From a virus (Duplodnaviria; Heunggongvirae; Uroviricota; Caudoviricetes), in IMG/VR virus record IMGVR_UViG_2740892035_000001, positions 1 to 26,810 of that record: a DNA stretch of 26,810 bases, one strand, 5' to 3'. The position numbers and the translations under genes are program-made. Under the pieces are notes generated by a model that saw only the letters and a list, made by a program, of their open reading frames with translations, did no database searches and was not told the DNA's origin. Positions 1-26,810 of this stretch are shown here, piece by piece (the first letter of the stretch is position 1; the number at the start of each line of letters is the position of its first letter).

Positions 1-1053
1 TTACGGGGTAATGCCAACCGCTGCCGCCACTTTGTCGCCACTTGGCAGCGTTGCCAGAGGATTGAAACGGAGCGCCGTTTCTAGATGATCCGGTGCCAGA
101 TGTGCGTAACGCATAGTCATTTTTATATCGTGGTGTCCGAGAATTTTTTGTAAGGCCAGAATGTTTCCACCCGACATCATGAAGTGCGCCGCAAACGTAT
201 GGCGCAGAACGTGTGTGAGTTGACCGCGAGGGAGCACGATAGACGTTTTTTCCATCACGGATAAAAATTGAAAATAGCAGTCTGTGAAGAAATTGAACCC
301 ATCAAGCGCCATGATCTCTTCGTAAAGCTCTTTACTGATAGGGATGCTTCTGTTTTTCTTCCCCTTCGTTCTGACAAAGGTAATTCGGTATTTGGTCACC
401 TGTGAGCGGGTAAGATTTACGGCTTCACGCCAGCGTGCGCCTGTGCTTAAGCATATCTTAACTACCAGTGCCAGAATTGGGTCCTGACGTTTGCAATCAG
501 CCAGCAATTCAACAATCTGCTCATGGGTAAGCCATGCCATCTCTTTTTCTGCGATGGTGAATTTTCGCATGTTCTCCAGTGGGTTCGGATACGACCATTC
601 GCCCAGACGGGATAGTTCGCTAAAAACACTACTTAGATAGCTTTGCTCCAGGTTAATGGTGACCGGGCTTGCTCCTTTCTTCCATTTCTCGCTGAAGTAG
701 ATCTCGCCTGTCAGGCGTTTATCTCGATAGTGGGCAAACATTTTAGAGGTAAGATCGGTTGCAAGAGGATTGCCCAGAGCGTCAACCATCAACAGCAATT
801 TGTCATAGACATGCTGCCCAGCTGTCAGAGATTTACCATGTAGTTTGAACCATAGCTCAACCACGTCTTTCAGTGTTCGACGATCCACTGATTCACCCAG
901 CCAGGGCTTTGCTTCGGTTTCTTCCATCGTGTGGCGCTCAAAAGCCAGTGCTTCGCCTTTGGTAGCGAATTGTTTACGCACACGACGCCCACTTCGTCCG
1001 GCGGGGTAACATTCGCAAAGCCATTTCCCTGTGGTTAGTTTTCGTACTGCCAT
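1..1053 (-). CDS. int: Tyrosine recombinase, P2-type phage integrase (350 aa, complete; stop at 1-3)
   Basis: Translation shows P2 Int-like blocks (ICLSTGARWREA; HVLRHTFAAHFMMSGGNILALQKILGHHDIKMTMRYAHLAP with R-H-R-Y catalytic context); position at prophage edge next to repressor operon. Confidence 0.92.
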   Translation of the reverse strand: MAVRKLTTGKWLCECYPAGRSGRRVRKQFATKGEALAFERHTMEETEAKPWLGESVDRRTLKDVVELWFKLHGKSLTAGQHVYDKLLLMVDALGNPLATDLTSKMFAHYRDKRLTGEIYFSEKWKKGASPVTINLEQSYLSSVFSELSRLGEWSYPNPLENMRKFTIAEKEMAWLTHEQIVELLADCKRQDPILALVVKICLSTGARWREAVNLTRSQVTKYRITFVRTKGKKNRSIPISKELYEEIMALDGFNFFTDCYFQFLSVMEKTSIVLPRGQLTHVLRHTFAAHFMMSGGNILALQKILGHHDIKMTMRYAHLAPDHLETALRFNPLATLPSGDKVAAAVGITP

Positions 1054-1057
1054 AAAA

Positions 1058-1077
1058 AGCCCTCATATCAGAGGGCT
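1058..1077 (-). terminator. Hairpin (7-bp stem AGCCCTC / GAGGGCT, 6-nt loop) followed on the minus strand by TTTT and then the int ATG
   Basis: Inverted repeat read directly; on the minus strand the GAGGG that could act as int Shine-Dalgarno lies in the stem. Confidence 0.45.
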
Positions 1078-1135
1078 AAATTTAACTGTATATGTAACCA
1101 GTAATCAATGTGTGATTACTATGAAACATACATTG

Positions 1136-2812
1136 CTAAGCAACATGTAGTTCATCGTTGGCGGAAGTGGCTGCTTTGCGCTCCTGCTCAATAGCTAGAG
1201 ACTCTCTATATTCTTTCGCCTCTGCAAACATTGTCCAGTGGGCGTTGATGTTCATGTCTTCAATAACTGATTTGATTTCTTTTAAATTTACGTTAAAAAA
1301 CTCTTTTCGTGAGTTAATTTTATTGACCTGCTTTTCGTTGAAAACTTTATGCAGATGGTTTTCTAATGATGGTGCATCATCACTATAAATCATCGCATGA
1401 ACATCGAACGAAAAAGGAACACTAGCATCTCCGAGTTCACGAACACGATCAAGTGGTTCAAGGCGGCGTGTCATTCCAATTTTATATACATCTTCGCCAA
1501 ATGAACCAATATTACTAATGATATAGACGTGGCCTGATCTGGTTTGTTGAGCCATAGAAATAGCTCGTTGATTTTTAGCTTCAGCTTCTTCATATTTTAA
1601 CTGTAGTTCAGCTATTTTTTGCTCTAAAGCTAAGCGTTGTTCTTCATTTGCAAGCATAAGTTCTTTCGTTGCTTTATTTATAGCTTGCTGAATAGCTTTT
1701 TCTTCTTTTTCAGCTTCTTTTATCGCTTTTTCATATTCTCTACGAGCTCTTTCCTCTTCACGAAGCTGTTCTTTAATCCTTCTTTGCTCTTCTTTTTCTT
1801 CGAGCATAATTTCATTAACTGCTACACCCCATTTTAGCTCGTTGAGTCTTGCCTGAAGATAGATGTCACTTATTTTTGCGGACCTAAAGGCAGAGCCATT
1901 GTAATTTACTAGTTGAAATGCATCTTTTATTTCTTGGGAAAGTTTTCCAAAATTGTTGTGTTTGACTTTTGATAAAATACTGTCAACTCTTCCATTGAAG
2001 GCATCCAAAACAAAGTTTATGGCAGTATTACGCCTGTTTTGCTCAACATAATCACACGAAGCAGCTTTATTAGTTTTTATTAATGATTTGGTTAACTCTC
2101 TGGCTTTTTGTAATTCCTTGCCTGCATCTGTAAATTCATAATTTTCTGCCAGCTCATCAAGTACACTACGGTTAGGGATGATCCATTCATCACCATAACC
2201 TTCAATTTTATTTTTCATTGATTTTGCAACTGCTTCATATTTTTCTGCAAACTCTTTAGCTTCATATGCTGAACCAGCAATCTCCTTTGCTCTTTCTTCT
2301 GCATCAGAAATAATTTTTACTGCATTGTCATTAGCATTTGAGATTAGCTCATTTGCTTTATTATTAGCATTATCAAGACGTTCTTTGGCTTTCAGGCGTG
2401 CATCGCGAGCGTCTTTGGTGATTGCTATAGCTTCGCTATTAGCGTTGCTTATTGTCATCTGAGCTTGATAATTTGCTTCGTTTACTGTTTTAGCCGCCTT
2501 AATTTGGGCTTCATCTATTTTTTGCTTGGCTATTGAGTCCGCATTTTTTATCTTATTCTCTGCATCCATTACTGCGCTGTGCAATTCTTCGTATTGCCAC
2601 AATGGTGCTGCTCGCCCTTCAAGCTCTGATAATTCTCGTACGGTCTGTGCTAGTTTTTCTTGATTTTCAATCAGTTGGTTAGAAAGGGCTATGTTGTTAG
2701 CTGTCAGGTTATCTATAGCCGCTTTGTGTTTTTTACTTTGTTTAAATAATATTACAGCTAGAACAGGGGCGAGAAATGCTAATAAGAGTATAACGATGGC
2801 AAATGAATTCAT
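1136..2812 (-). CDS. Accessory (moron) protein, 558 aa: N-terminal TM helix, ~330-aa Ala/Glu/Lys/Asn-rich predicted coiled coil, C-terminal T5orf172/MUG113-like (GIY-YIG-related) domain; architecture resembles DUF4041+T5orf172 proteins
   Basis: N-terminus MNSFAIVILLLAFLAPVLAVILF hydrophobic; C-terminus VYIISNIGSFGEDVYKIGMTRRLEPLDRVRELG...PFSFDVHAMIY resembles the T5orf172 motif; AT-rich compared with int and cI; starts 20 nt after the cI stop with AAGGA SD. Confidence 0.6.
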   Translation of the reverse strand: MNSFAIVILLLAFLAPVLAVILFKQSKKHKAAIDNLTANNIALSNQLIENQEKLAQTVRELSELEGRAAPLWQYEELHSAVMDAENKIKNADSIAKQKIDEAQIKAAKTVNEANYQAQMTISNANSEAIAITKDARDARLKAKERLDNANNKANELISNANDNAVKIISDAEERAKEIAGSAYEAKEFAEKYEAVAKSMKNKIEGYGDEWIIPNRSVLDELAENYEFTDAGKELQKARELTKSLIKTNKAASCDYVEQNRRNTAINFVLDAFNGRVDSILSKVKHNNFGKLSQEIKDAFQLVNYNGSAFRSAKISDIYLQARLNELKWGVAVNEIMLEEKEEQRRIKEQLREEERARREYEKAIKEAEKEEKAIQQAINKATKELMLANEEQRLALEQKIAELQLKYEEAEAKNQRAISMAQQTRSGHVYIISNIGSFGEDVYKIGMTRRLEPLDRVRELGDASVPFSFDVHAMIYSDDAPSLENHLHKVFNEKQVNKINSRKEFFNVNLKEIKSVIEDMNINAHWTMFAEAKEYRESLAIEQERKAATSANDELHVA

Positions 2813-2832
2813 TTTAAAATCCTTTTACTATA

Positions 2833-3429
2833 TTAATTCGAGACTATTGTACTTCTTATACAAGCAACCACTTCAATATCAGAAAATGCACATTCAAAGC
2901 TATTCTCTGCTGTTGTAATTTTAATCATTCCTTTAGGAAGCCTTGTGATTTTTCGAATGGAATAGGTTCCGTCGATATTGATTAACCAGTTTCCATCAAG
3001 TACTTCAGAAAATTTTTGATCACAAATGTATGTGACGAGTCCATCCTGAACAACAATTGGTGATGAAAGGTTTGCAGGAAGAAATGATGAATCGAAGACA
3101 TATGAACCGTCTTCAATCATTTTGCCTGCGGCAAGGCGAAACTTAACAAGCTCTTCTGTAGCTGCTGTCAGCGAGCTTTGCTTAAGGCCTTGTCCGGTAG
3201 TTAACCATTTGAGGGAGGTTCCTGTTTCAAGAGCACATTGGATTATCCAGTCAGCAGGAAATGTATCCCGCAAATACCTGTTCGCTAGTGTGCTTTTTGA
3301 TACTTCCAAGTGATCAGCTAAAGCCTGTCGTGTCGTAAAGCCATAGGCTTCGACTAATCGCTCAATCGCAGCCTTACCACCTTTATTGGGATTTATTTTG
3401 ATCTCACTTGGGTACTTTGATGTTGACAT
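2833..3429 (-). CDS. cI: 186-type CI immunity repressor (198 aa)
   Basis: N-terminal HTH region (AYGFTTRQALADHLEVSKSTLANRYLRD...CALETGTSLKWLTTGQG) follows the 186 CI pattern as recalled; sits between int-side cargo and divergent early operon. Confidence 0.8.
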   Translation of the reverse strand: MSTSKYPSEIKINPNKGGKAAIERLVEAYGFTTRQALADHLEVSKSTLANRYLRDTFPADWIIQCALETGTSLKWLTTGQGLKQSSLTAATEELVKFRLAAGKMIEDGSYVFDSSFLPANLSSPIVVQDGLVTYICDQKFSEVLDGNWLINIDGTYSIRKITRLPKGMIKITTAENSFECAFSDIEVVACIRSTIVSN

Positions 3430-3474
3430 ATCTCTTTTGCGATCCTAGTATCAGTTTTGTACCCAATTGGGTAC
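3423..3474 (+). promoter_or_regulatory. Candidate early lytic promoter (pR-like): -35 TTGACA 3423-3428, 17-bp spacer, -10 TAGTAT 3446-3451, then a perfect 16-bp palindrome GTACCCAATTGGGTAC (3459-3474), a likely operator
   Basis: Hexamers and palindrome read directly in the cI-apl intergenic region. Confidence 0.5.
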
Positions 3475-3524
3475 TTGTCACGATTACTACAGGCTCACCA
3501 CAAGCCAATAGGAGATGTTGCATC

Positions 3525-3746
3525 ATGACCCCTAACATTTCAATAACTCTGAATACGCCACACGTCACAATCGAGCGTTATAGCGAACTTACTGGTCTTT
3601 CAATCGACACAATCAACGATATGTTGGCGGATGGTCGCATTCCTCGGCATCGTCTTCGTAAAGACAAGAAAAGAGAAAAGGTAATGATCAACCTTGCTGC
3701 TCTTACCGTTGATGCACTTACTGATTGCAATGTTGTATTCAACTAG
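3525..3746 (+). CDS. apl: Apl/Cox-like small HTH protein (excisionase and switch regulator), 73 aa
   Basis: First gene of the rightward early operon; ATG at 3525 in frame inside track ORF 3408-3746; small basic HTH-like protein ([25 protein letters not shown]). Confidence 0.6.
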
Positions 3747-3778
3747 TTCCATTTTGGGATACATCAGAGGTGTCGACC

Positions 3779-4288
3779 ATGTTTGATTACCAAGTTTCCA
3801 AACATCCACATTTTGATGAAGCCTGTCGTGCATTCGCACTGCGCCACAATCTGGTGCAACTGGCAGAACGTGCGGGCATGAATGTGCAGATTCTGCGGAA
3901 CAAGCTGAACCCAGCTCAACCTCATTTATTAACCGCACCAGAAATCTGGCTGCTTACCGATCTGACTGAAGATTCAACGTTGGTAGATGGTTTTCTGGCA
4001 CAGATTCATTGTCTGCCATGTGTACCGATTAATGAGGTAGCAAAAGAGAAACTGCCGCATTACGTCATGAGCGCAACTGCAGAGATCGGGCGTGTTGCAG
4101 CAGGTGCGGTATCTGGTGATGTAAAAACTAGTGCCGGTCGTCGTGATGCTATCAGCAGCATTAACTCTGTAACACGACTGATGGCGCTGGCTGCTGTTTC
4201 ATTGCAAGCCCGTTTACAGGCTAATCCTGCGATGGCGAGTGCAGTTGATACCATGACTGGCCTTGGTGCTTCATTCGGTTTGCTGTGA
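3779..4288 (+). CDS. cII: CII-like establishment regulator (186 CII family), ~169 aa
   Basis: [45 protein letters not shown]... matches the 186 CII pattern as recalled; AGAGG SD 8 nt upstream of ATG 3779. Confidence 0.75.
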
Positions 4289-4295
4289 GGTGTTT

Positions 4296-4592
4296 ATGCT
4301 GACGAAAGAACCATCATTTGCATCGCTGCTGGTAAAACAAAGCCCGGCAATGCACTACGGTCACGGCTGGATCACGGGTGAGGATGGAAAACGCTGGCAT
4401 CCATGTCATTCACAAGATGAATTGCTGTCTGAATTGACCACGAGGAAACGGAGAAAGTCCAAATGTATGCGGCAGAAAGTGAAGTGGTTTATCAGTTTCG
4501 TTACAGAGGGGAGAGTTATTCAGTACCTGAAGATGATTTGCTCTGTTGCTATCCGTCATTGTCGGGCGATGGCAGTTACTTTTTCACGTTAA
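4296..4592 (+). CDS. Hypothetical early protein (position of fil/dhr-type early genes); 3' end uncertain
   Basis: ATG 4296 with GTGAGG SD; overlaps the next ORF by 130 nt in another frame. Confidence 0.35.
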   Translation: MLTKEPSFASLLVKQSPAMHYGHGWITGEDGKRWHPCHSQDELLSELTTRKRRKSKCMRQKVKWFISFVTEGRVIQYLKMICSVAIRHCRAMAVTFSR

Positions 4593-9196: not shown

Positions 9197-9430
9197 ATGC
9201 GCATTGAAATAATGATCGATAAAGAGCAGAAGATTAGCCAGTCTACCCTGGATGCCCTTGAATCCGAGCTTTACCGCAATCTGCGCCCCCTGTATCCCAA
9301 AACGGTAATTCGTATCCGCAAAGGTAGCTCTAACGGTGTGGAACTGACCGGACTGCAACTGGACGAAGAAAGAAAACAAGTGCTGAAAATTATGCAGAAG
9401 GTGTGGGAAGACGACTGCTGGCTGCATTGA
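9197..9430 (+). CDS. DinI-family protein (Tum72/DinI-like), 77 aa
   Basis: MRIEIMIDKEQ...ESELYRNLRPLYP...KVWEDDCWLH follows DinI family hallmarks (MRIE start, acidic Trp-containing C-terminus); own GAGGTGA SD. Confidence 0.65.
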   Translation: MRIEIMIDKEQKISQSTLDALESELYRNLRPLYPKTVIRIRKGSSNGVELTGLQLDEERKQVLKIMQKVWEDDCWLH

Positions 9431-9566
9431 TAGGTTTCGTTTGTAATGAGTCATGTTTTTTGAGTCCGATAGTAGACAGCTAGAGGGATAAATGATTAAT
9501 AGATAGATTAAACATAGTGATGGGCGTAAAATCGCGCGCATTTTATTGGCAACGGATCTGAACTCA

Positions 9567-10460
9567 ATGGCGGATAAGACTCAATCAGTAAGTATTGTGT
9601 ATCAAGGCAAAGCTCTCGACGATCATAAGATGGATATTCTTTCGTTTGCGAAAAGTTTGCAGGGGCTAGGTGAGGCTATCTACTCTGCAAATGAGATTGT
9701 AAACGGAGGGCGAGACATTGAAGTTAACGTTGACGCTGAATTGATAGCCGGTTCCTTTGGGTTTGATATTGAGGTTGTACAACATCTAGCTAATGCTAAA
9801 GATGTTGTACAAATTTTAGGTTTGTCAGCCATTCCTTTAGCCGTTGGCGGTGCTACAGTTTTAGAGGTTCTCAAGAAGCTTAACGGGCGTAAGATCGACA
9901 TAGTCGAGAAAGCTAACGGTAGTGACAAAGTTAAGCTGAAAGTCGATGGTGAAGAGATTGTTTGCTCTGAAGATGTCGAAAAAATCGTTAATGCCCCAGA
10001 GATTCGTAAGGCTGTTGACGCGTTTGTCAGACAGCCTCTGTTACAAGATGGTATCGACAATTTTGTGGTAAAAAAATCGCGCACCTCTAAGAAAGAAATC
10101 CTCAAAATTCATAAAGATGAGGCAGAAGAGTTTAAGTCGCCAAAAGTTCTCTTTGAAACCAAAGAAGAAGTTGACGAATTTGAAACAACCGTGACATTCG
10201 TTTCGGCGCATACTGACAAAAAAAGTGGCTGGCGTGTTGAGTTTGGCGGTGAAAAGCGCAATGTCAGAATGGAAGATAATGAGTTCATCAAGCTTGTTAC
10301 TGGACCAGACGCCCCCAAAATTTTTGGCGAATTGTTTGCTGTGAAGATGAAGAAAATTGTGAAAGATTCCGGTGGCCAGGTAGACGAAAAGTTATCGATC
10401 ATCAAAGTGGGTCGACACTTTGCCGCCAAAGATAGAAAAATAAAACCTGATGCGGATTAA
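9567..10460 (+). CDS. Accessory cargo protein X, ~297 aa, soluble, no recognisable motif (track start 9546 is a TTG)
   Basis: Long open frame in an AT-rich insert; first gene of a tightly coupled three-gene operon. Confidence 0.6.
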   Translation: MADKTQSVSIVYQGKALDDHKMDILSFAKSLQGLGEAIYSANEIVNGGRDIEVNVDAELIAGSFGFDIEVVQHLANAKDVVQILGLSAIPLAVGGATVLEVLKKLNGRKIDIVEKANGSDKVKLKVDGEEIVCSEDVEKIVNAPEIRKAVDAFVRQPLLQDGIDNFVVKKSRTSKKEILKIHKDEAEEFKSPKVLFETKEEVDEFETTVTFVSAHTDKKSGWRVEFGGEKRNVRMEDNEFIKLVTGPDAPKIFGELFAVKMKKIVKDSGGQVDEKLSIIKVGRHFAAKDRKIKPDAD

Positions 10461-10462
10461 AA

Positions 10463-10726
10463 ATGTCTATAGATATTAGTGTGTTAGGATGGTTGGGGCT
10501 GCTTGTTGCAGCTCCAGCTATATTTATAGGTGCTAGAGTGGCTATACGTAGCCTGCTCGATCGAGTTATTGTCGAAACAAAAGTTTCTATCACTTATACT
10601 GATGCAAACAAAAATGTCTATAAAACAAATATTTATATAAACAATGATGATGAGTTAATAAAGCTCATCGATGATATAGCAGAGAAAAATAAGCGTGAGA
10701 GGAAGGAGTCAGCCTCTCATGCCTGA
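10463..10726 (+). CDS. Accessory small membrane protein Y, 87 aa, one N-terminal TM helix plus charged C-terminal tail
   Basis: ISVLGWLGLLVAAPAIFIGARVAI hydrophobic segment; starts 2 nt after X stop. Confidence 0.55.
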   Translation: MSIDISVLGWLGLLVAAPAIFIGARVAIRSLLDRVIVETKVSITYTDANKNVYKTNIYINNDDELIKLIDDIAEKNKRERKESASHA

Positions 10727-11135
10727 ACAAAAGAAAACAAGCGGTAAAGCAGTCGGTGTTACAGGTGGCGGCGGTGTAGGCCTTTTCCTAATAAAGCTGG
10801 CTAGCTTCATTACAGATCCAACATGGAAAGACCTTTACATTGCTTCAATACCGATGGTGTCAATTCTTTTAAGCGAAGTTTTTACTTTTGCATGGACGAT
10901 TTATGCTGTTGATCCGCAAGAAATCAAACTGAAAAGGCGGTTGAAGGCTCTGAAGAAGCAAGCCGAAGCAGTTTTAAATGCACCATCGTCCCCTGTTTCT
11001 CCAGAAATGCGAGAGAAAGCGCAGGCTCGTTACGACGTGATCTGTGGAATTGAAATGGGAATTTACCCCCTCTCAATTGTAAATACGCTAGATGGAAAAG
11101 TATCCCCCACAGCGCAAACGCCGGACGTTAAATAG
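10719..11135 (+). CDS. Accessory membrane protein Z, 138 aa, two TM helices then soluble C-terminus
   Basis: ATG 10719 with AGGAAGGAG SD; overlaps Y by 8 nt; hydrophobic segments GVGLFLIKLASFI and IASIPMVSILLSEVFTFAWTIYAV. Confidence 0.55.
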   Translation: MPEQKKTSGKAVGVTGGGGVGLFLIKLASFITDPTWKDLYIASIPMVSILLSEVFTFAWTIYAVDPQEIKLKRRLKALKKQAEAVLNAPSSPVSPEMREKAQARYDVICGIEMGIYPLSIVNTLDGKVSPTAQTPDVK

Positions 11136-11200
11136 CAGTTTCTACTTTGCATGACTATGCTGCATGAAATCGCATGATCGTTTGAGGATCGTTTTTGCAA

Positions 11201-11227
11201 AAGCCCGCCAGAACTGGCGGGCTTTTG
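11201..11227 (+). terminator. Rho-independent terminator (GCCCGCC stem, 6-nt loop, TTTT tail) ending the X-Y-Z operon
   Basis: AAAGCCCGCCAGAACTGGCGGGCTTTT read directly. Confidence 0.7.
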
Positions 11228-11271
11228 CGTAGAGCATGCATCTGCATGAAAACCACTACATAAAGCGGGCA

Positions 11272-11290
11272 GGCGTGGCGGGGATACGAG
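11272..11290. other. Candidate cos (cohesive end) core: GGCGTGGCGGGGATACGAG
   Basis: First 13 nt match the G-rich 5' part of the 19-nt P2/186 cohesive end as recalled; lies between the accessory operons on the Q-proximal side. Confidence 0.35.
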
Positions 11291-11377
11291 CGCGCGCAAT
11301 AGGGTTATGTACAATAAATTTTTGACGATCTTCGAGTGTTATTAGCTTGAGGCTGTCAGGGAAAATGAATACAATAA

Positions 11378-11409
11378 GAAGCGCCTAGCAGAATGTTACT
11401 AGGCGCTTC
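11378..11409 (-). terminator. Hairpin (11-bp perfect stem GAAGCGCCTAG / CTAGGCGCTTC, 10-nt loop) downstream of the minus-strand micro-ORF operon
   Basis: Inverted repeat read directly; the minus-strand transcript would have a U-rich tract after it. Confidence 0.5.
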
Positions 11410-11442
11410 GAATATATAACCTGTATGACTTTCTTAACCTAC

Positions 11443-11550
11443 TTATCTTTTTGATTTCTTCTTCGTATCATCGTGATCGAATACTTGGCGGGTAGGCGGC
11501 TTGCTGGGTGGTGGCGGCGGCGGTAAATTAGATTTCTCATTTTTGCTCAT
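11443..11550 (-). CDS. Polyproline micro-ORF 1 (35 aa): MSKNEKSNLPPPPPPSKPPTRQVFDHDDTKKKSKR
   Basis: ATG-initiated; overlaps the stop of micro-ORF 2 by 14 nt; paralogous to micro-ORFs 2 and 3; below the ORF-track size cutoff. Confidence 0.45.
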   Translation of the reverse strand: MSKNEKSNLPPPPPPSKPPTRQVFDHDDTKKKSKR

Positions 11551-11671
11551 CTTTATTTTTCCTATTTTTTGGATCATTGCCATAGCTTTCTCTAACTAAC
11601 CGAGTGATTGGCGGTTTAGGTGGTGGTGGTGGTGGTGCTTCATTTTTTTTAGGATTTTTGTGTTCGGTCAT
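11537..11671 (-). CDS. Polyproline micro-ORF 2 (44 aa): MTEHKNPKKNEAPPPPPPKPPITRLVRESYGNDPKNRKNKDEQK
   Basis: In-frame ATG inside track ORF 11537-11725 (whose first M is a TTG); hexaproline tract; overlaps micro-ORF 3. Confidence 0.45.
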   Translation of the reverse strand: MTEHKNPKKNEAPPPPPPKPPITRLVRESYGNDPKNRKNKDEQK

Positions 11672-11786
11672 TTTTATCGTCCTTTCTGTCTCTTCGTAGT
11701 TGCCTTGCTTTTGAATCATCTTCAATAACGATCCTTCTTGCGGGTGGAGTAGGCCGAGGAGGTGGTGGCGGTAACGGTTTGGTCAT
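11649..11786 (-). CDS. Polyproline micro-ORF 3 (45 aa): MTKPLPPPPPRPTPPARRIVIEDDSKARQLRRDRKDDKNDRTQKS
   Basis: ATG overlaps the TAA stop of the upstream membrane protein gene (TAATG); translated by hand from the reverse complement. Confidence 0.45.
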   Translation of the reverse strand: MTKPLPPPPPRPTPPARRIVIEDDSKARQLRRDRKDDKNDRTQKS

Positions 11787-12436
11787 TAAGTTCTCCTGAC
11801 ATTTTCAATAGGTATTATCAAATAGTTAGGGGCGTTATTTTTCCGCGGTGATGCTGCATCTAAATCAGCTAAAAGAAATATGACTACTGCTGCGATAATT
11901 GGAATCCATGACCAGACAAGATACTTTGTTGACTCAAATAGTTTACTGGAACGTTCCTCATTGATATTACTGTTCCAGCTAGCACACTCTCTGATTTCTT
12001 GATGAATAAACTCCCAAAGTTTATTATCAGGGTTATAACTTTCATCGTATGTAAGTCCATTGTCATCGCAATATTTTTTATATTTCACTTCGTAACTAAT
12101 CAGATCTATGTGATAATCATGCAATGCTTTAGGTGCAGGGCAATACTTAAATTCATTTCCCCATATGACTTGTTTCAACAGAATTGATGATACAAGAACT
12201 AAGCCAAATGAAATTGCGGTACATAAAAATACTAGGCAAGCTAGCCTTGGGTGGGATTCATAAGATGTGTTTTTGGCGAGATAAGTGAGTATAGTTGCGG
12301 TAATGACAACTAATCCGAATTCGGCTTGAGCGCGAGTATGTATCTTGTCTTTATTCTCAATTTCTGAGAAATAAAGTTTTTCGTAAAATTCTAATGCTTT
12401 ATCCTTTTTCATTTTTAGATTCAGTGTGATGTCCAT
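11786..12436 (-). CDS. Accessory integral membrane protein, 216 aa, ~3 TM helices, no recognisable motif
   Basis: Hydrophobic segments FGLVVITATILTYLA, LACLVFLCTAISFGLVLVSSILL and YLVWSWIPIIAAVVIFLLA; AT-rich; between portal gene and cos-like motif. Confidence 0.6.
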   Translation of the reverse strand: MDITLNLKMKKDKALEFYEKLYFSEIENKDKIHTRAQAEFGLVVITATILTYLAKNTSYESHPRLACLVFLCTAISFGLVLVSSILLKQVIWGNEFKYCPAPKALHDYHIDLISYEVKYKKYCDDNGLTYDESYNPDNKLWEFIHQEIRECASWNSNINEERSSKLFESTKYLVWSWIPIIAAVVIFLLADLDAASPRKNNAPNYLIIPIENVRRT

Positions 12437-12469
12437 GTATCAAACATATCACGATAACAAAAAAAGAAA

Positions 12470-12487
12470 AGCCGCAATTCTGCGGCT
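12470..12487 (-). terminator. Rho-independent terminator after the portal gene (AGCCGCA stem, ATTC loop, then U-rich tract on the minus strand)
   Basis: On the minus strand the hairpin is followed by TTTTCTTTTTTTG. Confidence 0.65.
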
Positions 12488-12496
12488 GTTGGGAAG

Positions 12497-13534
12497 CTAA
12501 TCTAGCGATAATTCGTAATTTGTGAACCCTATCGCGTTTTTATCCAGCCATTTATTAAGCTCCTCAAAGCGTCTCTGAAGCGGAATAAGTTCATTACGAA
12601 CGAATACGCGGCTGGCCTTCTCCACATCCCCAAATCCCCCAACATTATTAGGCATAATCCCCATCATTTGCGGTGGCACACGATGCGCCGCCATCATGTC
12701 ATCCCGGCTCACGTTCTTGATGTTTAGAAACTCATCCTTCGCCGCGACTTCTGACAGAGGAATGATCTGAAGCCCATCCTTTTTGCCGTTAGGCGAGTAC
12801 ATAAACAGGTTGCGGAAGTTACCCGGTCCTTTGGCGCTTTTCATCGCATTGCGGAGGTTGTTCACATCCTCCTGGTTCTGCGCGGCATCGGTCATGTACA
12901 TGATGAAGCCTGCATGACTACCGTTAATGTAATACTTCCGGCGGAACAGCGTGGCGGACTCGTTGAGCAAAGCGGATGGGATGGCAGAAAGATAGCCGGG
13001 CAGGCCGTAGATCTCCTGATTAATATCCGGTTCCATCAGATGAAAAATGCTGCCTTTCGTGAACTGATACGGCTGGGTTGTCATACCGTATTGCACAAAC
13101 CAGTAGGTATCCAGGTCTAACCCGCGTCGGGTATATTTTGCCAGAGCAGGCTCAAGGGCGATAACTTCACCGAAGCGGTTCGTGCGTTTCTCCAGATAGG
13201 CGTTACCAAATACCAGATAGTCCTGCACAAAACGTGAAAAAGCCTGCTGGCTGAGCAGCGGGTGAGGGATGTAGGTACTGGTCAGTATGTTGCATTTCAC
13301 CGCAATTGGTGAACTGTGATGCACGGCAGCGCGGAAGGTGCGCGCCAGTCCGTCAAAGCTTACTGGCGGCTCATACCAGCGATCTGTCTGTACGCATTCC
13401 ACATAGTCCAGCAGTTCTCGGCGGTCCAGAACAGGAACGGGATCGCCGAAGCTGAATGCTTCGGCTGTAGTTTGACTTTTAAGCTGGATCTGTTTCGTCG
13501 CCGAAGCGCGGTTCTTCTTACTCTTTCCCATCAA
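12497..13534 (-). CDS. Q: Portal protein (P2 gpQ family), 345 aa
   Basis: Size and position as P2 Q, overlapping the terminase gene by 4 nt in the divergent Q-P operon. Confidence 0.9.
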   Translation of the reverse strand: MMGKSKKNRASATKQIQLKSQTTAEAFSFGDPVPVLDRRELLDYVECVQTDRWYEPPVSFDGLARTFRAAVHHSSPIAVKCNILTSTYIPHPLLSQQAFSRFVQDYLVFGNAYLEKRTNRFGEVIALEPALAKYTRRGLDLDTYWFVQYGMTTQPYQFTKGSIFHLMEPDINQEIYGLPGYLSAIPSALLNESATLFRRKYYINGSHAGFIMYMTDAAQNQEDVNNLRNAMKSAKGPGNFRNLFMYSPNGKKDGLQIIPLSEVAAKDEFLNIKNVSRDDMMAAHRVPPQMMGIMPNNVGGFGDVEKASRVFVRNELIPLQRRFEELNKWLDKNAIGFTNYELSLD

Positions 13535-23743: not shown

Positions 23744-25242
23744 GCACAAAATTTTATACCCTGCTGACGGATATTGGCGCGGCGAAACTTGCCAGCGCCG
23801 CCGCGCTCGGTGTGCCGCTAAAAATTACCCATATGGCGGTGGGCGATGGCGGCGGAGTATTGCCAACGCCGGACGCAAAGCAGACGGCACTGGTAAATGA
23901 GAAACGCCGGGCTGCGCTGAATATGCTTTATATCGACCCGCAGAACAGCAGCCAGATTATTGCTGAACAGGTGATCCCTGAAAACGAGGGCGGTTGGTGG
24001 ATACGTGAAGTGGGCCTGTTTGATGAGTCCGGGGCATTGATTGCCGTGGGAAACTGCCCGGAAAGCTATAAGCCGCAACTGGCTGAAGGCAGCGGGCGTA
24101 CCCAGACCGTGCGCATGGTGCTGATCACCAGCAGCACGGACAATATCACCCTGAAAATCGACCCTGCTGTAGTGCTGGCAACCCGTAAATACGTGGATGA
24201 TAAAGTCCTGGAATTAAAGCTGTATGTGGATGACCAGATGAGAAACCACATTGCCGCACAAGATCCTCATACCCAGTATGCGCAGAAACATAATCCGACA
24301 TTTACCGGAGAACCAAAAGCGCCGACGCCTGCAGCAGGAAATAACACCACTCGGATTGCGACCACAGAGTTTGTTCAGGCCGCTATTACTGCTCTGATTA
24401 ACGGTGCGCCAGCCACGCTGGACACACTGAAAGAAATTGCCGCAGCCATTAACAATGACCCGAAATTCAGTACCACTATTAATAATGCACTGGCACTGAA
24501 AGCGCCGCTGTCGAGTCCGGCACTCACCGGAACGCCAACAGCACCTACTGCGGCACAGTCGGTCAACAATACACAGATTGCCACCACGGCATTTGTGAAA
24601 TCGGCGATTGCGGCAATGGTGGGTTCTGCACCTGCGGCACTGGATACACTGAACGAACTGGCGGCGGCACTGGGGAATGATCCGAACTTTGCCACGACAA
24701 TGCTTAATGCGCTGGCAGGTAAACAACCGCTGGACAATACGCTGACTCATTTGAGTGGAAAGGATGTAGCAGGTCTTCTCGCATACCTTGGTTTGGGAGA
24801 AGCGGCAAAACGAAATGTGGGCAACGGGGAAAACCAAATCCCTGATATGTCTTTCTGGACGGTTACTGGTGGCAATGGAAATTTTGTGATTCGTCAACCT
24901 GACGGGCTAATCACTCAGATGGTTACTGTAAGTATAAGCGGTCCAGTGGCGATGAATGGAATGACTGATAATGCTTATGCCATTACAGGTTCTAATAAGT
25001 CTTATATTGCCACAGCCACATTGCCCTTTGTATTTCCTAATAAGGTGCTGGGCGTTATCCCTCTGGTATCAACAACAGCTTATGGTGGTGTATCCAGTAA
25101 TATTACAGGTTCATACGCGACGGCGGTTTGTTCTTTTGCCGCTGTCAGGGGGAATAATACGATTGTGTTCAAAGTCGACAAACCACTGAATGCAGCCTTT
25201 CCTTCAGATACCAGCGTCTCAGCGTTAATCATTGGACGGTAA
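23740..25242 (+). CDS. H: Tail fibre protein H in its current orientation: constant N-terminal part (to ~24788) fused to variable C-terminal receptor-binding part Hv (24789-25242), 500 aa
   Basis: Position as P2 H; repetitive Ala/Thr/Asn-rich fibre sequence; hix-like crossover site inside the ORF at 24776-24801. Confidence 0.88.
   Translation: MSTKFYTLLTDIGAAKLASAAALGVPLKITHMAVGDGGGVLPTPDAKQTALVNEKRRAALNMLYIDPQNSSQIIAEQVIPENEGGWWIREVGLFDESGALIAVGNCPESYKPQLAEGSGRTQTVRMVLITSSTDNITLKIDPAVVLATRKYVDDKVLELKLYVDDQMRNHIAAQDPHTQYAQKHNPTFTGEPKAPTPAAGNNTTRIATTEFVQAAITALINGAPATLDTLKEIAAAINNDPKFSTTINNALALKAPLSSPALTGTPTAPTAAQSVNNTQIATTAFVKSAIAAMVGSAPAALDTLNELAAALGNDPNFATTMLNALAGKQPLDNTLTHLSGKDVAGLLAYLGLGEAAKRNVGNGENQIPDMSFWTVTGGNGNFVIRQPDGLITQMVTVSISGPVAMNGMTDNAYAITGSNKSYIATATLPFVFPNKVLGVIPLVSTTAYGGVSSNITGSYATAVCSFAAVRGNNTIVFKVDKPLNAAFPSDTSVSALIIGR
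24776..24801. promoter_or_regulatory. Left 26-bp hix/gix/cix-like crossover site TTCTCGCATACC-TT-GGTTTGGGAGAA inside H
   Basis: Right half-site is the reverse complement of the left half of the site at 26760-26785; central dinucleotide TT versus AA, i.e. inverted orientation. Confidence 0.7.
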
Positions 25243-25244
25243 GA

Positions 25245-25688
25245 ATGAACTCAGTATTCTTTTCACCCGGAAGTAAAAGTTTTTATCTGCAAGAATTGTT
25301 TCCAGAATATGAGGATGCGGGAACGCTTCCTGATGATGTTATTGAAATTACCAGAGAAACATATGAGCAATTTCTTGGGCTGCATCCAGAAGGGAAAGAA
25401 ATTGGCGCTGACAGTTCAGGACGACCAGTATGGATTAATTCCCCACCGCCTTCAAAAGAGGATGAGGTGCTGGCGGCTGAAATGAAAAAAATATCTTTGG
25501 TTTCAGAAGTCAATACCTACATCAATACCCATCAGTGGCCTGGCAAAGCTGCTATTGGTCGTCTGAAAGGTGACGAGCTGGAACAATATAATTTATGGCT
25601 GGATTATCTGGACGCACTGGAACTGGTCGATACTTCCGGTGCGCCAGATATTGAATGGCCTACGCCTCCGGCAGTTCAGGCCAGATGA
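25245..25688 (+). CDS. G: Tail fibre assembly protein G (Tfa), 147 aa
   Basis: Conserved Tfa C-terminus (NLWLDYLDALELVDTSGAPDIEWP); immediately after H. Confidence 0.85.
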   Translation: MNSVFFSPGSKSFYLQELFPEYEDAGTLPDDVIEITRETYEQFLGLHPEGKEIGADSSGRPVWINSPPPSKEDEVLAAEMKKISLVSEVNTYINTHQWPGKAAIGRLKGDELEQYNLWLDYLDALELVDTSGAPDIEWPTPPAVQAR

Positions 25689-26262
25689 CGTCCGGCGCTG
25701 TGCTGGTATCTGTTGCCGTCACCGCGTCAATATAATCCAGCACAGCGTTAAGTCGGGTGTTTTCTGGCTGCGTCAGCTTCCGCCCGGCCTGTAATTTCAG
25801 TTGAATCAGATTGATGGAAGCCATTGCAGCATCAATCAGCGACTGGCGCTGTGCTTCTGCCGCTTCTACTGCGGCGCTATGCTGTGCCTCAGTATCTGTC
25901 ACCCATTTCTCACCATCCCATTCATCGTATGGCGTTAACGGGGCGATAGTGGTTGTATTTTCAGGATAATCACCAGGAGCTGTGATTTCTTTCGATTCTC
26001 CTGTTTCGGTGCTATAGATGATTTCACCGCGATGGTCTGGCACATATTCCCATGAGTTAAAATCTGCAGAACGGCAGATTGCATAACCAGCTTTATGTGT
26101 AACTGGTGCATCTAAACAAGAACATGCCGGGATACCGACGCCAACCGCAAGATATTCAGTTGATGTGGAAATATATTCCCGCGTTTCACCATCATAATTA
26201 TAAATGGTAATGTCTCCCGCTTTTATGGCAATGAGTTCGTTATTTAATACGGCTTTATTCAT
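25660..26262 (-). CDS. Alternative tail fibre assembly protein (tfa of the inverted orientation), 200 aa
   Basis: Conserved Tfa C-terminus (LNAVLDYIDAVTATDTSTAPDVIWP); convergent with G, 29-nt 3' overlap. Confidence 0.85.
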   Translation of the reverse strand: MNKAVLNNELIAIKAGDITIYNYDGETREYISTSTEYLAVGVGIPACSCLDAPVTHKAGYAICRSADFNSWEYVPDHRGEIIYSTETGESKEITAPGDYPENTTTIAPLTPYDEWDGEKWVTDTEAQHSAAVEAAEAQRQSLIDAAMASINLIQLKLQAGRKLTQPENTRLNAVLDYIDAVTATDTSTAPDVIWPELPEA

Positions 26263-26772
26263 CAGGCAGCCCTCACGATATAATTAAAGGCAATGTTACG
26301 AGGACGGTTTTCGTTTGCAGTTGGAACGATTCTTGAAGCATCAAGGCCAATCACTTTTGGGTAAACAGCGCCATCTGTTCTTTCTGTCACCATACTTCTG
26401 ATTAAGGAGAAATAACTATTGTTCGTTGAGGGATTCAAAGGCACCACTGCCCCCTTAAACGAGCCTGCTGATTCCCATATTGAATAATTTTCGGTGTTTA
26501 CAGTCTTGAACTCACCATAGATATTACGTATGGCATCGCCCTGAGCTGATAATATTGTTCTCCCCGCATCCGCACTACGCCCATCATCCCAGCCACGAAT
26601 AAATTCACCGCGTAAATCAGGCAATTTATTTGTCGGGTAAGCCTTTGCCAGTTCCGGGTATTCTTCAGCAGAAAAAGCTGCTCCGTTGCATTTCAGCCAG
26701 CCTGTTGGCGGAGTGGCTGAGGGCCACGGAACAGGCACCCCAACAGGTAATGCAGAGCCTTCTCCCAAACCA
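26262..26772 (-). CDS. Alternative tail fibre C-terminal variable domain (tail-collar type), ~170 codons, with no start of its own; expressed only after inversion fuses it to the H constant part
   Basis: GVPVPWPSATPPTGWLKCNGAAFSAEEYPELAKAYP resembles the Mu S/P1 S/e14 StfE tail-collar domain; the open frame runs through the hix-like site to the window edge. Confidence 0.75.
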
Positions 26773-26785
26773 ACGTTTAAGAAAA
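26760..26785. promoter_or_regulatory. Right 26-bp hix/gix/cix-like crossover site TTCTCCCAAACC-AA-CGTTTAAGAAAA
   Basis: Closely resembles hixL (TTCTTGAAAACCAAGGTTTTTGATAA) as recalled; inverted relative to the site at 24776-24801. Confidence 0.75.
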
Positions 26786-26810
26786 TGCAGAGGTAACAGC
26801 TAACTGGCAT

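Follow-up and report, generated by a model that had tools for sequence, protein, structure and literature searches.

A SNIPE (PD-λ-1)-family gene in the cI-int slot of a P2/186-like enterobacterial prophage

The stretch of DNA analysed here, IMG/VR record IMGVR_UViG_2740892035_000001 (26,810 nucleotides (nt), referred to as the window), is a P2/186-like (Peduoviridae) prophage whose integration site adjoins rcdA/ybjJ. Between its repressor gene cI and its integrase gene int lies an open reading frame (ORF) of 558 codons with an ATG start (1136..2812, minus strand), which is the subject of this study. An original prediction, made from the letters of the sequence, had described an AT-rich gene of 558 amino acids (aa) at this place and had proposed that its product is a prophage-encoded exclusion or defense effector at the inner membrane. 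According to our analysis, the gene belongs to the SNIPE (PD-λ-1) family and very probably provides single-gene, direct (non-abortive) anti-phage defense. The gene and the parts of its product are as follows:

1136..2812, minus strand: SNIPE / PD-λ-1 family gene, 558 aa, putative single-gene defense system (ORF, PADLOC, Pfam and reference alignment).
2744..2803, minus strand: codons of the predicted transmembrane (TM) helix, residues 4-23, FAIVILLLAFLAPVLAVILF (Kyte-Doolittle 19-mer mean 3.16; helical in the AlphaFold2 (AF2) model).
2201..2743, minus strand: lineage-specific helical stalk, residues 24-204 (AF2 helices 2-67 and 78-204).
1823..2170, minus strand: DUF4041/SNIPE domain with a conserved N-terminal extension, residues ~215-330, Pfam core 267-322 (PF13250; predicted local distance difference test (pLDDT) >90).
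1538..1822, minus strand: charged linker helix, residues 331-425 (AF2 helices 316-387 and 390-425).
1238..1537, minus strand: GIY-YIG-type nuclease domain (T5orf172/MUG113), residues 426-525 (Pfam; SNIPE alignment).
1361..1363, minus strand: codon of E484, the counterpart of the catalytic E414 of SNIPE (pairwise alignment).

Membership of the SNIPE family is carried by profile searches over most of the protein. The PADLOC model PD-Lambda-1 PDLC03976 matches residues 106-550 of the 558 (model positions 36-481 of 491) with E = 2.4e-120 and 400.7 bits, and a second PADLOC model, PDLC03977, matches with E = 7.9e-117. Pfam DUF4041 (PF13250) was found at residues 267-322 (3e-12; 46.6 bits against a cut-off of 27), while T5orf172 (residues 427-520; 3e-17, 63 bits) and MUG113 (4e-20, 73 bits) both exceed their gathering cut-offs. 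The two domains suspected in the original prediction, T5orf172 and DUF4041, are thus both present at significant scores. Among the PHROGs, phrog_1847 matches the protein at 7e-133. Homologues with 84% identity carry the precomputed Pfam label "PF13250:SNIPE", and in some RefSeq records the identical gene is named "SNIPE associated domain-containing protein". Every feature of the SNIPE/PD-λ-1 family that can be looked for by computation was found in the 558-aa protein. The idea of a prophage defense or exclusion effector at the inner membrane is therefore supported in silico, and the system can now be given the name SNIPE (PD-λ-1).

The catalytic residues of the family are conserved in the protein. 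Of 33 aligned family members, 31 have Glu at the position of E484. The motifs GHVY427-430, YKIG443-446, R449/R450, H472 and E484 are near-invariant in at least 30 diverse relatives, and N497 is likewise conserved in the family. The C-terminal T5orf172/GIY-YIG-like module of the original prediction was recovered in this region by T5orf172 and MUG113. In an AF2 model based on a diverse alignment (mean pLDDT 85.3), the TM helix runs into the stalk (helices 2-67 and 78-204), followed by a helical DUF4041 bundle (~217-309), a second long helix (316-425) and an α/β C-terminal domain (427-530). The model obtained from a shallow alignment (83-100% identity) had a mean pLDDT of 51.8 and is usable for secondary structure alone. 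What had been described as a single coiled coil of ~330 aa is resolved by AF2 into two helical stretches flanking DUF4041, and the stalk itself gave only weak coiled-coil-type matches (DivIVA and V-ATPase E). The proposed N-terminal anchor held up in silico as the hydrophobic residues 4-23. Only MNS stands N-terminal of this segment, and K24, K27, K28 and K30 stand C-terminal of it; the three-residue stub and the Lys-rich C-terminal flank would fit an N-out, C-in topology.

PD-λ-1 was discovered by a functional screen in 2022 (ECOR26, RCP76574.1, 500 aa; Vassallo et al., 2022, PMC9519451) and was renamed SNIPE when its mechanism was explained (Saxton et al., Nature 2026, PMC13190303). SNIPE is an inner-membrane-anchored GIY-YIG nuclease with N-out, C-in topology that cuts incoming phage DNA during injection; both DNA and the tape measure proteins of siphoviruses are bound by its DUF4041 domain (PMC13190303). 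Defense is direct, with survival of the cells and no self-cleavage even of membrane-tethered DNA, and the induction of a resident λ prophage is unaffected (PMC13190303). Both defense and nuclease activity are lost in the E414A variant, and removal of the TM helix renders SNIPE toxic and leads to cleavage of the chromosome (PMC13190303). No myovirus or podovirus of the BASEL collection was restricted by SNIPE, recognition proceeding via siphovirus tape measure proteins (PMC13190303). One TM helix is present in 59% of SNIPE homologues. The N-terminal regions of the family, which vary greatly in both length and sequence, may serve as specificity adapters (PMC13190303).

As reference SNIPE we used the coding sequence of phage PhiR26_1 annotated "PD-lambda-1" (500 aa), which was verified by nine of nine published landmarks (E223, N250, L253, W257, E264, K305, I308, T319 and E414). 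In a BLASTP comparison, the window protein is 50% identical to this reference over residues 265-555 (283 residues, 293 alignment columns; E = 5e-77), and hhalign gave a probability of 100%. Identity amounts to 70 of 94 residues (~74%) in the nuclease domain and to 48% in the linker helix. Like ECOR26 SNIPE, the window protein consists of a TM helix, a helical region, DUF4041, a long linker helix and T5orf172/GIY-YIG in the same order, is encoded by a single, prophage-borne gene and has kept the catalytic Glu. Unlike ECOR26 SNIPE, it has 558 instead of 500 aa, and its first ~215-264 residues are unrelated in sequence and ~70 residues longer. The genomic settings are also different, with the reference gene lying in a lambdoid prophage beside ren/rha and the window gene in the cI-int slot of a 186-like myovirus prophage.

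An exhaustive search with residues 1-264 returned 325 representative clusters. Among the full-length relatives that share residues ~100-264, 39 of 40 carry DUF4041 and 31 of 40 carry T5orf172. The high share of DUF4041 indicates that residues ~170-264 are a conserved extension of the family core, and the clade-specific part comprises only the TM helix and the stalk of residues ~24-170. Within the 558-aa clade, identity is 60-68% in the TM helix, ~80% in the stalk and ~90% elsewhere, so that the TM helix and the stalk evolve fastest. This fits the N-terminal variability published for SNIPE (PMC13190303).

The genomic context of the gene comprises the following features:

1..1053, minus strand: tyrosine integrase, 350 aa, with an attachment site adjoining rcdA/ybjJ (Pfam Int_N and Phage_integrase; chromosomal context).
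1054..1135, minus strand: conserved int-upstream element, the fixed boundary of the cargo slot, with a terminator-like hairpin at 1058..1077 (kept in 8 loci whatever the cargo).
2813..2832, minus strand: 20-nt cI-to-gene spacer with the Shine-Dalgarno sequence AAGGA at 2824..2820 (read from the sequence).
2833..3429, minus strand: 186-type CI repressor, 198 aa (Pfam Phage_CI_repr 8e-32 and Phage_CI_C 3.5e-27).
3423..3451, plus strand: predicted pR-like lytic promoter TTGACA-17-TAGTAT, facing pL (consensus scan, 10/12 matches; position of 186 pR relative to the cI start).
3515..3543, minus strand: predicted pL-like lysogenic promoter TTGAAA-17-CAACAT (aligns to 186 pL TTGCGA-17-CATGAT; identical in sister prophages).

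Both neighbors of the SNIPE-type gene, cI and int, are phage core genes, and the reference gene likewise stands by itself in its lambdoid setting, which is consistent with a single-gene system. The gap to the cI stop is exactly 20 nt, and AAGGA stands 7 nt ahead of the ATG, just as the original prediction had read this start. The distance to int is 82 nt (1054..1135), and that between cI and int is 1,779 nt (2832 down to 1054). An Apl/Cox-like ORF and a CII (CP76) homologue are located beyond the divergent promoter region from cI. The gene is AT-rich, as had been noted, with a guanine-cytosine (GC) content of 37.0% against 50.0% for the window; the values for cI and int are 40% and 48.7%, respectively. 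The original prediction had further regarded the gene as wedged into the cI-int pair. Its position between the two genes stands, but its insertion into a pre-existing pair seems less likely: the low GC content spans cI as well, so that cI and the SNIPE-type gene resemble a single linked module.

The distribution of the two genes points in the same direction. Many E. coli genomes contain DNA identical to window positions 1-3800, at least 80% of which is present in 164 of 5,426 complete genomes, and the 198-aa cI allele occurs in the complete E. coli genomes only together with the SNIPE-type gene. The isolated phages vB_EcoM-813R9 and Klebsiella KP12 have the gene at the same position, and no copy was found in the plasmids searched. 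In Klebsiella, Salmonella and Enterobacter, cI and the SNIPE-type gene recur with identical 20-nt and 82-nt spacers, the sequence of the former being nearly unchanged, and have diverged in parallel (cross-genus identity of 81-86% for cI and 83-85% for the SNIPE-type gene). The integrase beside them varies in length (339, 344 and 350 aa). This fixed geometry and the parallel divergence across genera argue that the 198-aa cI and the 558-aa gene are an old linked module and not the product of a recent insertion.

Around 1,100 genomes share the integrase, and their homology to the window ends at positions ~1064-1133. In sister prophages, which use the same attachment site, the slot between cI and int is occupied by a homologue of P2 Old (PADLOC, 9.2e-235), a KAP NTPase (PDC-S20, 4.2e-82), unknown proteins of 325 and 349 aa, or nothing more than a 63-aa ORF, and each cargo begins 0-43 nt past its cI. 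Because the same flanks hold alternative, often defense-related genes, the cI-int slot of E. coli 186-like prophages behaves as a defense hotspot. Related loci have been described, namely a cI-integrase hotspot in K139-like Vibrio phages (Rousset 2022, PMC9122126), the gpA-portal (old/tin) and fun loci of P2-like prophages (Rousset 2022, PMC9122126; Vassallo 2022, PMC9519451) and, as a broad class, an "integrase-primase" minor hotspot (NAR 2026, PMC13586616). An explicit account of the cI-int slot in E. coli 186-like prophages was not found in the literature searched; the latter article gives only the broad class "between integrase and primase" (NAR 2026, PMC13586616). Like the hotspots of P2-like and K139-like phages, the slot is a short variable locus amid conserved phage genes and holds alternative defense genes. 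Unlike in the published hotspots, the cI allele of the window lineage varies with the cargo, and the fixed boundary is an 80-nt int-upstream element.

Some of the sister prophages possess a CI of 312 aa (positions 3630-4568 of locus L004 from E. coli S3, with similar proteins in loci L005 and L003) with two Phage_CI_repr stretches (1.9e-57). From its sequence, this protein looks like a tandem-helix-turn-helix variant of the repressor. It accompanies different cargo, either Old or the unknown proteins of 325 or 349 aa.

In phage 186 as annotated, cI overlaps int by a single base and the two genes belong to the pL lysogenic operon, in line with the adjacency and co-transcription that the original prediction had stated for 186-type phages. 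In the window, the SNIPE-type gene is likely co-transcribed with cI from pL in the lysogen. This is plausible given the pL homologue, the 20-nt gap and the finding that no terminator was predicted in this gap, the only candidate in the unit being weak and located inside the cI coding sequence. The window shares with phage 186 the two Pfam domains of CI, an Apl/Cox-like gene, CII together with its site at the pE position, and predicted pR and pL promoters standing face to face. Unlike phage 186, which has nothing between cI and int, it contains a 1.68-kb putative defense gene and an 82-nt structured element.

Nothing comparable to this int-upstream hairpin element is present in phage 186. The RNA fold of the element was calculated at -32.1 kcal/mol (z = -5.5). 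Its hairpin (1058..1077), detected in a terminator scan, is a stem of 7 pairs (5 G-C) with a T5 run. A single compensatory change from A-T to T-A distinguishes the two hairpin alleles, and the 3' arm (GAGGG) is the Shine-Dalgarno sequence of int. The hairpin may terminate the cI-cargo transcript and/or gate the translation of int. It points to an at least partial insulation of the cI-cargo unit from int, which would set the window apart from 186. Ahead of the hairpin, TTGAC(A/C)-16/17-TAAAAT-like hexamers and an ATGTATG...CATACAG inverted repeat were observed. An interpretation of this repeat as a CII site or a λ pI-like promoter was considered and found unsupported: ATGTATG occurs in the window at chance level, and the genuine 186-type CII half-sites (ATGTTTG-N13-CAAACAT), which are located at the pE position, differ in sequence and spacing.

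In phage λ, rexAB is co-transcribed with cI, so that exclusion genes reside in the repressor operon. Like rexAB, the SNIPE-type gene is placed directly 3' of the immunity repressor and, if co-transcribed as predicted, would be constitutively expressed in the lysogen. Unlike in this likeness of position, the proteins and their mechanisms are unrelated.

Several observations weigh against equating the 558-aa protein with the characterized SNIPE. Its DUF4041 core is only ~28% identical to that of SNIPE, and the tape-measure-contact positions differ (SNIPE E223 corresponds to S292, N250 to Q320 and W257 to K327). Residues 1-264 could not be aligned pairwise to ECOR26 SNIPE, the family profile alone extending to ~106-170. 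SNIPE associates with ManYZ, and the published model assigns this association to the N-terminal region (PMC13190303), that is, to the half of the protein that is unalignable here. A sequence search of the PDB with the 558-aa protein gave no match and hence no solved-structure homologue, and fold searches with the full-length model returned nothing informative on the nuclease domain. When the C-terminal domain alone was scanned against Pfam under relaxed thresholds, T5orf172 and MUG113 were the only matches, and the canonical GIY-YIG model PF01541 was not among them. In view of these results, the GIY-YIG label is based on T5orf172/MUG113 and on the SNIPE paper (PMC13190303). The assignment of transcription to pL, finally, derives solely from the alignment with phage 186.

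With regard to the contact positions, the window protein naturally has K327 (codon ~1832-1834) at the W257 site of SNIPE and Ser at the E223 site (S292). In SNIPE, W257R strongly improved defense against phage Bas14 and E223K was also enhancing; substitutions such as W257R/E223K are frequent among SNIPE homologues (PMC13190303).

By analogy with the characterized homologue, we infer membrane localization, nuclease activity, a target range and co-transcription with cI for the 558-aa protein. We posit that the membrane anchor would keep a non-specific GIY-YIG nuclease off the chromosome. At the time of phage genome injection (by siphoviruses in the case of SNIPE), the DUF4041 domain would make contact with the tape measure protein as well as with the incoming DNA, and the nuclease would then shred this DNA at the entry site. 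A lysogen that makes the SNIPE-type protein together with cI from pL would protect both host and prophage against heterologous phages, and the induction of the resident prophage itself may be spared, as is that of λ in the presence of SNIPE. Because the TM helix and the stalk differ, the membrane partner (ManYZ for SNIPE) and the target range may differ as well. One may go further and regard the 558-aa enterobacterial clade as a functionally distinct SNIPE variant that, through its different TM helix and stalk, docks to an inner-membrane conduit other than ManYZ, covers a different range of phages and is co-inherited with one cI allele as an "immunity plus entry-nuclease" cassette, insulated in its transcription from int by a conserved terminator/Shine-Dalgarno-sequestering hairpin. 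We put this forward tentatively, as a possibility that is rather doubtful.

Other functions were weighed against direct defense at DNA entry. The protein might be an abortive-infection or toxin effector, in which a tethered nuclease is released or activated after infection, degrades host and phage DNA and kills the cell. T5orf172 is also found in other candidate defense systems such as PDC-S57, which matches the protein at 4.5e-20, the TM-less form of SNIPE is toxic and cuts the chromosome (PMC13190303), and the divergent N-terminal half could bring a different regulation. The characterized homologue, however, acts by direct defense with survival and without self-cleavage (PMC13190303). Moreover, the sequence hints at no release or cleavage site, and conservation within the 558-aa clade amounts to ~90% in the catalytic and DUF4041 regions, as the same mechanism would predict. 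We consider an abortive mode very improbable. A SNIPE-type nuclease directed mainly at its own kind, that is, at P2/186-like myoviruses and hetero-immune relatives rather than siphoviruses, is very unlikely. It would be in keeping with the tight linkage of the gene to one cI immunity allele across genera, with inter-phage competition genes such as Old in the sister slots, and with a stalk and tape-measure-contact residues different from those of SNIPE. Yet SNIPE left myoviruses and podoviruses of the BASEL collection unrestricted and acts via siphovirus tape measure proteins (PMC13190303), and our analysis gave no positive sign of a different target class.

A structural or housekeeping role, as an SMC-like "chromosome segregation ATPase" or as a lysogeny-control factor, is effectively refuted. 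It goes back to the annotation "chromosome segregation ATPase" that the identical or near-identical gene of two isolated phages has in GenBank (ON470620.1, 27790-29466, and OM835953.1), and the weak coiled-coil matches to SMC, DivIVA and V-ATPase E as well as the position inside the lysogeny module could be cited in its favor. However, a search for a Walker A motif in the 558-aa protein found none, no ATPase domain is among its Pfam matches, and the SMC_prok_A match, at 15.5 bits, falls far short of the cut-off of 729; we regard the label as a misannotation from coiled-coil similarity. In addition, the gene seems dispensable for lysogeny control, since sister prophages replace it with unrelated cargo or the 63-aa ORF and yet keep the same lysogeny module. 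Some enzymes of the GIY-YIG superfamily are homing endonucleases, and with its low GC content of 37% the gene might be taken for a selfish, homing-endonuclease-like mobile gene inserted between cI and int. Against this stand the membrane anchor and the DUF4041 domain, the fixed position and spacers with co-divergence with cI across four genera, the equally low GC content of the neighboring cI and the lack of intron or intein features, which leave a homing gene with a negligible probability. Direct, SNIPE-type defense is therefore the function that we assign to the gene with considerable confidence.

Two further regions of the prophage are variable. At the gpA-portal hotspot, BLAST comparison showed that window positions 9429-12585 differ from the otherwise near-identical prophage in strain MS8345. 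The ORF at 9546-10460 (plus strand, 304 aa) matches the PADLOC candidate system PDC-S42 (8e-44), and for other ORFs of this hotspot, such as 10695-11135 (plus strand) and 11786-12436 (minus strand), no Pfam or PADLOC match was obtained. In MS8345, this position is taken by a PD-T7-1 homologue (1.3e-196) together with a DUF4145 protein. In the tail-fiber region, a tail-fiber-assembly-like segment at window positions 25783-26313 (ORFs 25660-26262 and 26262-26810, minus strand) matches MS8345 with only 82% identity and in the opposite orientation, and the 3' region of the tail fiber (24702-25782) has no match. A host-range cassette that was swapped or can invert is suggested by this pattern.

Systems of this kind are already known, as are their mechanism, their association with prophages and the concept of defense hotspots, and PADLOC, the Pfam PF13250 "SNIPE" label and RefSeq already recognize this exact protein. 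The defense nature of the gene, which was deduced blind from the raw sequence, was a sound prediction. What emerges from our analysis is a widespread SNIPE clade with a different membrane-proximal half that rides the cI-int slot of 186-like prophages across the Enterobacteriaceae. With a TM helix and a stalk of its own, this clade may direct the nuclease to another entry route or phage range. It provides a natural counterpart to ECOR26 SNIPE in relation to the proposal that SNIPE owes its specificity to the N-terminal region.

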